Assembly (NCBI GenBank): GCA_023261595.1
Contig: JAHFOQ010000002.1
Location: 1 to 52,156 of the forward strand
Source: a bacterium
GTDB taxonomy: Bacteria; Patescibacteriota; Saccharimonadia; CAILAD01; BJGX01
Length of the DNA stretch: 52,156 bases
Direction: 5' to 3'
Below are positions 36,858-39,701 of this stretch, piece by piece (within the stretch, counting starts at the first letter, position 1; every line of letters begins with the position of its first letter). The position numbers and the translations under genes were made by a program. The notes under the pieces were generated by a model that saw only the letters and a list, made by a program, of their open reading frames with translations, ran no database searches and was not told the origin of the DNA.

Positions 36858-39701
36858 ATGAAAAATTACGACCCAAAAGCTACAGAGGCCAAATGGCAAA
36901 AGATTTGGCAAGAAACCAATTTATATAAAACACCAGAAAATCCGAAAAAACCATTTTACAATTTAGTGATGTTTCCGTACCCGAGTGGAGATTTGCACGT
37001 AGGGCATTGGTACAACTTTGCACCGGCCGACACGCTTGGGCGTTTTGCGAGAATGCACGGGTACGATGTATTGCAACCACTTGGGTATGATGCATTTGGT
37101 TTGCCAGCCGAAAATGCAGCAATAAAACGCGGGATACCTGCAGATGAATGGACCGCAAAAAATGTTGCAAATTTTCATGCCCAATATCTTAAACTTGGTG
37201 GCATGTATGACCCAGAAAAAGAAATAAATACTTCAAGCCCAGAATATTATCGGTGGACTCAGTGGTTGTTTTTGCAACTTTTCAAAGCTGGTAAAGCAGT
37301 ACAGAAAGAAGCATATGTTAACTGGGACCCAGTTGATAAAACTGTTTTAGCAAATGAGCAGGTTATTAATGGTTTTGCCGATAGAAGTGGGGCTAAGGTA
37401 GAAAGAAAGTTACTGAAACAGTGGTTTTTTACGATTACCGATTACGCCGAAGAACTTATTGATGATTTAAAAGATTTAGATTGGCCTGAAAGGGTTAAGC
37501 AACAACAGATTAATTGGATCGGTAAAAGTCATGGTGCGTTAGTGAAGTTTCCGATCGTTGATTCGGACAAGAGCATTGAAGTGTATACCACTCGAATTGA
37601 TACGATTTTTAGCGGGACATTTATTGTGCTTGCACCAGAACACCCAATGATTACGCAATTAACCGATAGTAAACAGAAAAAAGAAGTTGAACAATACATT
37701 GAACAAGCTGGAGCAAAGACCGATGTCGATCGCCAAGAAGCCAAAGAAAAAACTGGAGTTTTTATCGGAAGTTATGTGACGAACCCGGCCAGTGGTGAAA
37801 AAATGCCGGTCTGGGTGGCAGATTTTGTATTGGGTGGTTATGGTACAGGAGCCGTATTTGCCGATGCTCACGATGAACGTGACGTTGAATTTGCACGCAA
37901 ATATAATATTCCACTTAAGCAGTCAATTGAACCTGTTACCGGAACACCACAAGAAGATCCAGAGTTTCGCCGCAGTATTGTAGCTCTAGTACGTAATCCA
38001 AAAACGAATGAAGTATTAATGATTAATTGGGGTAAGAATAATGGTGGCCATATCTTTATTGGTGGTGGTGTAGATGAAAATGAAGATCTCATTGAATGCG
38101 CGAAGCGGGAGATTTTAGAAGAAACTGGATATAGTGACGTAACATTTGTTAAACAGACAGAAAATATTCATCATCACTATTTTGCGCATTCAAAGAATGT
38201 TGCAAGAAAAATTTTAGCTACCGGTTTACTCTTTGAACTGAATACCGATAAGCAACAAGACCAAGCATTAGAAACGGATGAAAAAAATAAATTTAGTGTG
38301 GAATGGATTGAGGAAAAGAAGGCAGAGAATCTTGTAGGAGATGAATTACACCAGTATGTGTATCGCCGGTTAATAAAAGATGAGATTTGGTCTGGCGATG
38401 GTATTTTATATAATTCTGATCAGTTTGATGGAATGGAATCGTCTGCAGCACGTATAAAGATAACTGATTGGTTAGCAGAAAAAGGTTTGGCCGAGCACAA
38501 AACACAGTATAAACTGCGCGATTGGTTGATAAGCCGTCAACGCTATTGGGGTGCCCCAATTCCAATAATTTATTGCGATTCATGTGGTGTTGTTCCTGTA
38601 CCAGAAGATCAGTTACCTGTTGTTCTACCTCTAGGACAGAAGTTTGATGCAACTGGTCAATCGCCACTCTTGCGTGAAAGCTTTACTGATGTAAAATGTC
38701 CTGAATGTAATGCTGACGCGAAACGAGAAACTGATACTATGGATACATTTGTTGATAGTAGTTGGTATTATCTACGTTATCCAAACACTAATTATAGTAA
38801 AGGTGCATTTGACCCCGAAGCGGTTAAGACTTGGTTACCCGTTGATAGATATATGGGCGGCATAGAACATGCAATTTTACATCTACTTTATGCTCGGTTT
38901 ATTACGAAGTTTCTCTATTCCCAAAAATTAATAGATTTTAATGAACCATTTAAAAAGTTAATTAACCAAGGGATGATTCTTGGCCCAGACGGCAATAAGA
39001 TGAGTAAATCAAAAGGAAATGTTATCGACCCATTGGAGTATTTAGAAAAATATGGGTCTGATGCTCTACGGCTTTACTTAATGTTTATGGGGCCTTATGA
39101 AGACGGAGGACCATGGGATACAAGGAGATTTGAAGGAACTTTTCGGTTTATTAATAAGGTTTACAGTTTAGTGTCAGAATCCTATATTCAACAAGAAGAA
39201 GATACTATTATTGAGGCCGATCTCGAGACAAAATTGCATAAAACGATTAAAAAAGTCGGTGAAGATATTGGAGCTGTTAAATTTAATACGGCAATTGCAG
39301 CTCTCATGGAATTCGTGAATAACTTAAGTGTAATTAAACAAAATGGAAGTGTTTCGGGTCAGGCTTGGCAACAGACTATTGTTTCACTTGTAAAAATTAT
39401 GGCGCCATTAACACCACATTTAGCAGAAGAAATGTGGGAAGAGTTGGGTCAGACTGAATCTGTCCATTTACAGTCTTGGCTAAAATATGATGAAGCCAAG
39501 GTAAAAGATGATGTCGTTACAATTGTGGTACAGGTAAACGGTAAACTAAAAGCCGAGTTTGTTGCTATAGCTGGTAGTGACAAACAAGAGCTTGAAACTA
39601 TGGCACGAAAACTGGATCAAGAAAAAAATCTAACTAAAAATGGTGAGATTCTAAAAACAATCGTGGTACCGAATCGATTAGTTAACTTTGTGGTGAAATA
39701 A
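36858..39701 (+). CDS. leuS: leucyl-tRNA synthetase with an inserted Nudix hydrolase domain
   Basis: 947 aa. HIGH-type motif (HVGHWYN), KMSKS (KMSKSKGN), CP1 editing motifs ([22 protein letters not shown]), [17 protein letters not shown] ~147-aa insert at about 37950-38390 carries the Nudix box [23 protein letters not shown]. Confidence 0.92.

Follow-up and report, generated by a model that had tools for sequence, protein, structure and literature searches.

The window analysed here is a stretch of 52,156 nucleotides (nt) from a bacterium of the Saccharimonadia (GenBank assembly GCA_023261595.1, contig JAHFOQ010000002.1), in which a gene for leucyl-tRNA synthetase (LeuRS) carries a predicted Nudix hydrolase domain nested inside its CP1 editing domain. 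The open reading frame (ORF) encodes a complete bacterial-type LeuRS: its match to the NCBIfam model TIGR00396 (leuS_bact), which the insert divides into two stretches, scores 966.5 bits (cutoff 548.4), and a phmmer search of the PDB aligns it with the LeuRS of Thermus thermophilus (1h3n) at E 4e-228. Its Pfam domains are tRNA-synt_1, the CP1 editing domain PF13603 (E 8.6e-56), Anticodon_1 and PF00293 (NUDIX). The length of 947 amino acids (aa) given in the first-pass annotation, which was made from the sequence alone, proved correct, and all the peptides it quoted were found in the ORF. The editing-site motifs are a T-rich TTRIDT (aa 244–249) and GTG...HDERD (aa 329–342); like HVGH and KMSKS, they are conserved to the same degree whether or not a relative carries the insert, and the synthetic and editing sites of the Nudix-bearing enzyme look intact. 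An AlphaFold2 (AF2) model of the full-length protein (predicted local distance difference test, pLDDT, 89.1; predicted template modelling score, pTM, 0.78) gives values of 83–96 for the Nudix blocks and shows short linkers at aa 363–368 and 506–514.

An in-frame Nudix domain with a complete catalytic box had been proposed in the first-pass annotation, together with an alignment to bacterial LeuRS, a Pfam comparison and an AlphaFold model as ways of checking it, and all three support the proposal. PF00293 matches aa 370–501 with an E value of 1.2e-13 in the whole protein and of 1e-14 when 37935–38390 is taken alone (51.7–55.1 bits against a gathering score of 21.1), covering profile positions 2–131 of 134. 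The Nudix box is exact at every position, G403-x5-E409-x7-R417-E418-I-L-E421-E422-T-G424-Y425, and thus fits GX5EX7REUXEEXGU, its residues being conserved across homologues (see below). In the alignment with 1h3n, query aa 1–368 correspond to residues 1–372 and query aa 511–709 to residues 377–579, which delimits the insert to approximately 142 residues (aa ~369–510) standing where the T. thermophilus enzyme has a 4-residue stretch; likewise, counted from reference aa 355 to 520, the protein has 166 residues, as against 12–30 (mostly 22) in insert-less Saccharibacteria LeuRS. Modelled in isolation, the insert has a confidently predicted fold (pLDDT 93.9, pTM 0.88). The placement of the insert after the end of CP1, as first annotated, had to be corrected: it lies within CP1 and splits the PF13603 match at position ~149/150 of 185. 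Since in-silico removal of aa 369–510 leaves a single contiguous PF13603 match (positions 2–184), the Nudix domain is, on this profile evidence, nested inside the editing domain, in a length-variable surface loop.

Table 1. Coordinates of the LeuRS gene, its nested Nudix domain and the separate Nudix gene of the window (nt), and of the sites at which Nudix copies occur in LeuRS (reference aa)
Feature	Position	Strand	Evidence or number of copies
Complete leucyl-tRNA synthetase gene with nested Nudix, 947 aa	36858..39701	+	ORF, TIGR00396, PDB phmmer, AF2
HIGH motif (HVGH, aa 47-50), synthetic site	36996..37007	+	kept in LeuRS with and without insert
CP1 editing domain, N-terminal part (aa 219-366)	37512..37955	+	match to 2-149 of the 185 PF13603 positions
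Nudix insert (aa ~369-510; Pfam NUDIX aa 370-501)	37962..38387	+	PF00293, AF2, Foldseek, alignment boundaries
Nudix box G403-x5-E409-x7-R417-E418-x-x-E421-E422-x-G424-Y425	38064..38132	+	sequence reading, homologue conservation
CP1 editing domain, C-terminal part (aa 511-545), past insert	38388..38492	+	PF13603 match contiguous after in-silico deletion
KMSKS motif (aa 714-718)	38997..39011	+	conserved
Separate free-standing Nudix gene, other subfamily (domain nt ~41427-41756; start codon uncertain)	41427..41831	+	PF00293, E 1.3e-16
Nudix site i, just upstream of CP1	reference aa ~204-208		10 copies
Nudix site ii, CP1 N-terminal hairpin	reference aa ~233-240		6 copies
Nudix site iii, the window's site	reference aa ~360-368		97 copies
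Nudix site iv, ZN-2 region	reference aa beyond ~573		3 copies

Relatives of the LeuRS were sampled by searching with the whole protein and taking the 120 best clusters at 90% identity. The same in-frame insert is present in 54 of these clusters, which derive from independent assemblies and are 52–85% identical to the window protein, and this excludes chance or an assembly error as its origin. Named insert-bearing examples belong to Candidatus Saccharibacteria or Saccharimonadales. Across the 54 homologues the residues of the Nudix box are conserved to at least 95%. The metal-binding residues of the domain are under strong purifying selection, and the domain bears all the marks of catalytic competence. 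Mean pairwise identity is 51% for the insert, 59% for CP1 and 46% for the anticodon-binding/C-terminal region. Because the box is conserved, the divergence of the insert is intermediate, no repeats flank the insert and its composition is host-like (GC 0.357 versus 0.391 for the rest of the gene, and 0.275 versus 0.299 at third codon positions), the insert is indicated to be a long-resident, selected portion of LeuRS.

In a neighbour-joining tree of the non-insert columns, LeuRS with and without the insert are interspersed, and two insert-less proteins (P0014 and P0029, of 812 and 802 aa, respectively, 74–76% identical) nest in the window's otherwise all-Nudix clade. The locus of P0014 (L075) is syntenic with the window, with genes for a C39-like peptidase, LeuRS, L32, NusB, a small Nudix protein, RNase III and an alpha/beta hydrolase, and in this orthologue, at 76% identity, the module is cleanly absent. 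Since close orthologues do without it, the Nudix domain is an accessory module, dispensable for the core LeuRS reaction, and its repeated loss in close relatives is the most parsimonious explanation of this distribution.

Modules other than Nudix were also observed in CP1. In a 922-aa LeuRS of the window's clade (P0021) there is no Nudix; the CP1 N-terminal hairpin of this protein holds instead, at reference aa ~238 (corresponding to window nt ~37570), a 112-aa ASCH domain (PF04266, E 8.7e-7). The same hairpin (reference aa ~234–238) holds a conserved module of ~125 aa (…SPGYWNEYI…FLFK…DPW…), with or without Nudix elsewhere in the protein, in P0093 and P0118 (931 aa) and in P0018, P0019, P0024 and P0026 (1080–1087 aa); for this module, even a Pfam threshold of E<=10 gives no match. 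In Saccharibacteria LeuRS, CP1 thus seems to be a general platform on which accessory modules can land. On the practical side, Nudix-bearing LeuRS are often under-named in NCBI: P0019, P0034, P0056 and P0098, all of which carry the Nudix domain, are labelled only 'class I tRNA ligase family protein', whereas close insert-less relatives are named leucine--tRNA ligase, and the nested domain may degrade automatic annotation.

A profile built from 33 inserts and run against 1.84 billion representative proteins gave 2759 matches at E<1e-3, 306 of them at E<1e-10; architectures were counted among the best 150 representatives (50%-identity clusters) of the 2759. LeuRS proteins or fragments account for 106 of the 150, with Nudix at no fewer than four distinct sites in or around CP1 (Table 1). 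In the relatives P0073, P0084 and P0120 a second copy lies at ~535–547. Between one and three copies occur per protein, nine proteins having two or three. P0121 (941 aa) and P0122 (1140 aa) each contain three, in the form of a tandem pair before CP1 and one copy at the window's site; in the middle copy of both, Q/A replaces E409/R417 and the three metal-binding glutamates are retained. A different host is represented by P0205, a prolyl-tRNA synthetase (ProRS; PF00587, PF03129, PF09180) with Nudix between its anticodon-binding and C-terminal domains. Four further ProRS clusters (P0271–P0274) share this architecture, the five being archaeal-type proteins of 641–674 aa whose nearest named relatives are from Nanoarchaeota and Woesearchaeota. 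No fusion partner other than synthetases was found among the classifiable proteins of the best 150. Species-representative genomes contain at least ~25 loci with Nudix inside LeuRS, assigned by record title to Saccharibacteria, Paceibacterota, Parcubacteria or the 'Patescibacteria group', together with a few metagenome-assembled genomes (MAGs) labelled Bacilli or Gammaproteobacteria, labels that are unverified.

On a hidden Markov model (HMM) of the subfamily, LeuRS copies at other sites score 70–105 bits, ProRS copies 84–118 bits and free-standing proteins 105–188 bits, with E. coli RppH at 14 bits. Across the 150 domains and in every context, conservation reaches at least 99% for E418, E421 and E422, and K446 and W483 are nearly invariant in the same set, while variation at E409 and R417 is seen in the second copy of tandem arrays (often Q/A or D/K; pattern GQAEEEG) and in ProRS. 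The signature of the subfamily consists of W391, an H-K446-x-V-N-R motif, E475 and W483. By these profile scores and residues, the insert is to be classed as a member of a distinct Nudix subfamily of ultra-small prokaryotes which, in multidomain proteins, occurs almost only inside aminoacyl-tRNA synthetases. This association spans bacteria of the Candidate Phyla Radiation (CPR) and, apparently, DPANN archaea. The survey of its taxonomic distribution, which the first-pass annotation had recommended, thereby brought out a large synthetase-associated subfamily in Patescibacteria and DPANN-type archaea, apparently lost repeatedly in close relatives. The free-standing members L013, L017, L025 and L026 have no consistent gene-neighbourhood partner, their neighbours including a HAD hydrolase, a low-molecular-weight phosphatase and surface proteins. 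At one of these loci, in a Paceibacterota MAG (L026:321-1775), the free-standing member is immediately followed by a tRNA_bind (PF01588) protein and then by a second Nudix gene.

Comparison of the insert model with the PDB by Foldseek gave 574 matches at E<=1e-3. Each of the 50 listed is a Nudix protein, TM scores to Nudix structures are 0.62–0.74, and the insert accordingly has the alpha/beta/alpha Nudix fold in its model. The closest is the MutT/Nudix protein 2azw of Enterococcus faecalis (sequence E 1e-3, TM 0.74–0.77), which matches the whole domain with 20% identity and, as a structural-genomics protein of unknown function, is uninformative on substrate. It is followed by E. coli RppH entries (ranks 2–9, TM 0.62–0.69), an Aquifex Ap4A (diadenosine tetraphosphate) hydrolase, the MutT1/Rv2985 diadenosine polyphosphatase and NudB; RNA-bound RppH structures are among the matches, and the fold scores of NudB, MutT1 and NudI resemble those of RppH. 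A profile search matched the lupin Ap4A hydrolase 1f3y at E 8e-6, as well as Dcp2; the single best match, both to NCBIfam and in the PDB-profile search, is to NudB. The insert does not reach the cutoff of the NudB equivalog NF006961 (30.7 bits versus 103) or of the RppH and diadenosine polyphosphate (ApnA) hydrolase models NF001934–NF001938 (at best 26.4 bits versus 116), and the MutT 8-oxo-dGTPase model TIGR00586 is absent from its NCBIfam matches at E<=0.1. For free-standing members of the subfamily, RppH models are the most consistent weak NCBIfam match (20–42 bits versus 116–118). Sixteen residues past the Nudix box, Y441 is at least 90% conserved and resembles the Tyr ~17 residues downstream of the box that we take to be a signature of ApnA hydrolases. 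RppH/NudH and ApnA hydrolases (4s2x/7sp3, 3i7u, 1f3y, Rv2985 of Mycobacterium tuberculosis) have in common with the insert the Nudix fold and a full catalytic box, and perhaps also a conserved Tyr ~16 residues past the box; they are only ~20% identical to the insert and free-standing, whereas the insert is nested in a synthetase. The insert is most like the RppH/ApnA group in character, a candidate affinity that lies below family thresholds. A role in a defence system was also considered and rejected, as the PADLOC models returned nothing meaningful (the sole match, PDC-S07, is generic, with 20.8 bits).

We tentatively favour the reading that the insert hydrolyses ApnA-type nucleotide by-products beside the synthetase. 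In this proposal the Nudix domain would be a putatively active, Mg2+-dependent pyrophosphohydrolase, tethered to the synthetase and cleaving a nucleoside-diphosphate-X compound that arises at or near it. The likeliest substrates would be Ap4A and diadenosine triphosphate (Ap3A), formed by reaction of ATP or ADP with aminoacyl-AMP bound to the enzyme, and by cleaving them the domain would give ATP/ADP and AMP back to the nucleotide pool; to our knowledge, ultra-small hosts are generally incapable of de novo nucleotide synthesis. The domain would act alongside aminoacylation and post-transfer editing and would replace neither. Hydrolysis of ApnA is ranked first because synthetases, which are the main cellular source of Ap4A, make ApnA, and because the closest relatives of the insert that have been characterised include ApnA hydrolases. 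The clean-up of ApnA put forward in the first-pass annotation is accordingly judged plausible, RppH and Ap4A hydrolases being among the nearest characterised folds and profiles.

Several observations weigh against hydrolysis of ApnA. No curated Nudix subfamily threshold was passed in the NCBIfam, PDB sequence/profile or Foldseek comparisons, the best NCBIfam scores being 20–42 bits versus cutoffs of 103–154. The hhalign comparison with verified E. coli RppH gives a probability of 86% and covers the N-terminal half only, ending before Y441, which by extrapolation is one residue out of register with RppH Y77. The TM scores to RppH and Ap4A hydrolases (0.62–0.69) are no higher than those to NudB or MutT-like enzymes. 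Furthermore, LeuRS and ProRS are not known as the strongest producers of Ap4A, so that this reading leaves the choice of these two hosts unexplained, and tethering gives an ApnA hydrolase little obvious gain, given that free-standing copies exist.

The main alternative, to which we give rather little weight, is that the insert is an RppH-like enzyme that works in cis on RNA ends, namely the acceptor end of synthetase-bound tRNA, where it might convert 5'-ppp-tRNA or Np4A/NAD-capped tRNA to 5'-p-tRNA or take a pyrophosphate or ADP-ribose-type adduct off the CCA end. E. coli RppH, RNA-bound forms included, dominates the characterised structural neighbours and supplies the most consistent weak NCBIfam match of subfamily members, and all LeuRS insertion sites lie in or beside CP1, which handles the tRNA 3' end, and ZN-2, with none in the anticodon-binding or C-terminal domains. 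The ASCH domain found in CP1 of sister LeuRS lineages is a predicted RNA-binding fold, and one free-standing copy adjoins the tRNA_bind gene. Additionally, the ProRS hosts have DPANN-type relatives, and at least one DPANN archaeon (Nanoarchaeum) makes leaderless 5'-ppp tRNAs. However, RppH family models score far under cutoff and the hhalign match to RppH extends over half the domain; RNase P cleavage normally leaves bacterial tRNAs with a 5'-monophosphate; and the module has been repeatedly lost with no replacement visible nearby. It is unlikely, in our estimate, that the Nudix domain constitutes a third catalytic site on tRNA, performing in-cis end maturation or repair via CP1 and arrived at convergently in CPR LeuRS and DPANN ProRS. 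Under such a scheme the domain might trim a 5'-triphosphate or Np4A/NAD caps, or clear the CCA end of pyrophosphate or ADP-ribose adducts installed by toxins.

Just as doubtful is the proposal that the insert is a housekeeping Nudix enzyme, either a general sanitiser of the nucleotide pool or a pyrophosphatase of metabolites (of the MutT, NudB or ADP-ribose type), that is lodged in an essential gene of a streamlined genome, merely co-expressed with LeuRS and uncoupled from aminoacylation. It is consistent with the failure to assign a specific subfamily, with NudB as best NCBIfam and PDB-profile match and MutT1 and NudI among the fold matches, with the unrelated neighbours of free-standing copies and with the dispensability of the module. 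Yet the same subfamily was inserted repeatedly and independently into LeuRS, at no fewer than four sites and with as many as three copies per protein, and into the ProRS of another domain of life, and no other host protein was identified among the best 150 representatives; such patterns are not expected of random lodging. A non-catalytic domain, whether structural, tRNA-binding, protein-docking or a nucleotide sensor regulating LeuRS, is very improbable: the second tandem copies, often with Q/A or D/K at E409/R417, and the ProRS copies, which vary there too, would suit such a role, but E418, E421 and E422 are retained in every context, variant copies included, and the window copy has a perfect box.

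The pre-transfer editing role raised in the first-pass annotation, namely hydrolysis of non-cognate aminoacyl-adenylates, has very little to recommend it, its sole support being the location within the editing domain. It conflicts with Nudix chemistry, since Nudix substrates are nucleoside diphosphates linked to X and so need a diphosphate linkage, whereas aminoacyl-AMP has one phosphate and an acyl-phosphate bond; known aminoacyl-AMP hydrolases are HIT/Hint proteins. Moreover, the enzyme has an intact canonical site for post-transfer editing, and in ProRS this module does not lie in an editing domain. Finally, a misassembly, frameshifted pseudogene, intein or other mobile insertion is effectively refuted: the patchy presence in close relatives and the conserved, essential host genes recall the distribution of inteins, but the ORF is intact, its architecture recurs, in frame, in the 54 independently assembled clusters, Pfam gives no match to Hint/intein families and a C-terminal His-Asn motif is missing from the junctions (...EPV|TGT...EIW|SGD...). 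The missing Hint domain and splice-junction motif rule out an intein, and the lack of flanking repeats, the host-like composition and a divergence comparable to that of the LeuRS remainder rule out a recent horizontal insertion or mobile element.

With regard to other features of the window, the first-pass annotation had placed a second Nudix gene at 41136–41831. The gene itself is upheld by PF00293, but it probably starts well downstream of 41136, as 41136–41338 overlaps the NusB ORF in another frame. The ORF 41016–41831 (+) overlaps the low-complexity C-terminal tail of NusB (ORF 40703–41338, +) by ~200–320 nt in a different frame, and one of the two overlapping low-complexity frames is likely untranslated. 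Because the syntenic orthologue of the free-standing Nudix protein has only 122 aa, the true start is probably near 41400–41460. The free-standing protein scores 37 bits on the MutT model TIGR00586 (cutoff 97.9), and its gene adjoins NusB and RNase III also in the insert-less locus L075. That the insert is a duplicate of this neighbouring gene is ruled out by the 22% identity between the two and by the 29.6 bits that the free-standing protein attains on the insert-subfamily HMM, against 70–188 for true members. Downstream of LeuRS, a 132-aa ORF without a Pfam match (39714–40112, -) occupies the place where L075 has a plus-strand YceD gene (PF02620) between LeuRS and L32. Elsewhere in the window, 1075–1170 (+) is an isolated 96-nt match to positions 1071–1165 of bacterial large-subunit ribosomal RNA (rRNA; 73 bits, E 1e-19), situated between the unannotated ORF 98–553, which has no Pfam match, and a UvrD/PcrA helicase gene. 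There is no rRNA operon close by, and the match may represent a leader that mimics rRNA or a fragment.

Set against known systems, the window enzyme has in common with other bacterial LeuRS (T. thermophilus 1h3n/2byt; E. coli 4aq7/4arc) the HIGH and KMSKS motifs, the T-rich and Asp editing motifs and the anticodon-binding and C-terminal domains. It differs from T. thermophilus LeuRS in having the Nudix domain of ~142 aa in place of a short variable CP1 loop (residues 372–377) and in lacking a ~60-aa segment (residues 579–638) of that enzyme. Precedents for joining an adenylate-forming enzyme of the HIGH superfamily to a small-molecule enzyme domain are isoleucyl-tRNA synthetase with a GNAT domain (NF040702) and NadM-Nudix (NF003790), models for both of which appeared in the NCBIfam scans. 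NadM-Nudix, a nicotinamide mononucleotide adenylyltransferase/ADP-ribose pyrophosphatase, is an end-to-end fusion, whereas the window Nudix is nested in a class Ia editing domain and occurs in one to three copies in its subfamily. A functional parallel is offered by the axis of lysyl-tRNA synthetase (LysRS), Ap4A and Hint1/NUDT2, in which the synthetase makes Ap4A and the Nudix enzyme NUDT2 degrades it; LysRS and NUDT2 are, however, separate eukaryotic proteins, whereas the window hydrolase would be covalently part of the synthetase and its substrate is putative.

Synthetases with extra domains are already known and the sequences are public, but the nesting of Nudix in LeuRS or ProRS appears undescribed: literature searches found no published description of either, in agreement with the first-pass annotation, whose author knew of no LeuRS-Nudix fusion. 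What is distinctive is the independent insertion at multiple sites, in up to three copies, its recurrence in the ProRS of DPANN-type archaea and its restriction to ultra-small, nucleotide-scavenging episymbionts. Domains appended to synthetases usually signal extra biology, such as editing, signalling or regulation, and the present case suggests an unstudied coupling of aminoacylation to nucleotide or RNA-end metabolism. The naturally occurring orthologues with and without the insert offer a simple system in which to ask whether ApnA, capped RNA or damaged tRNA ends are policed at the synthetase.

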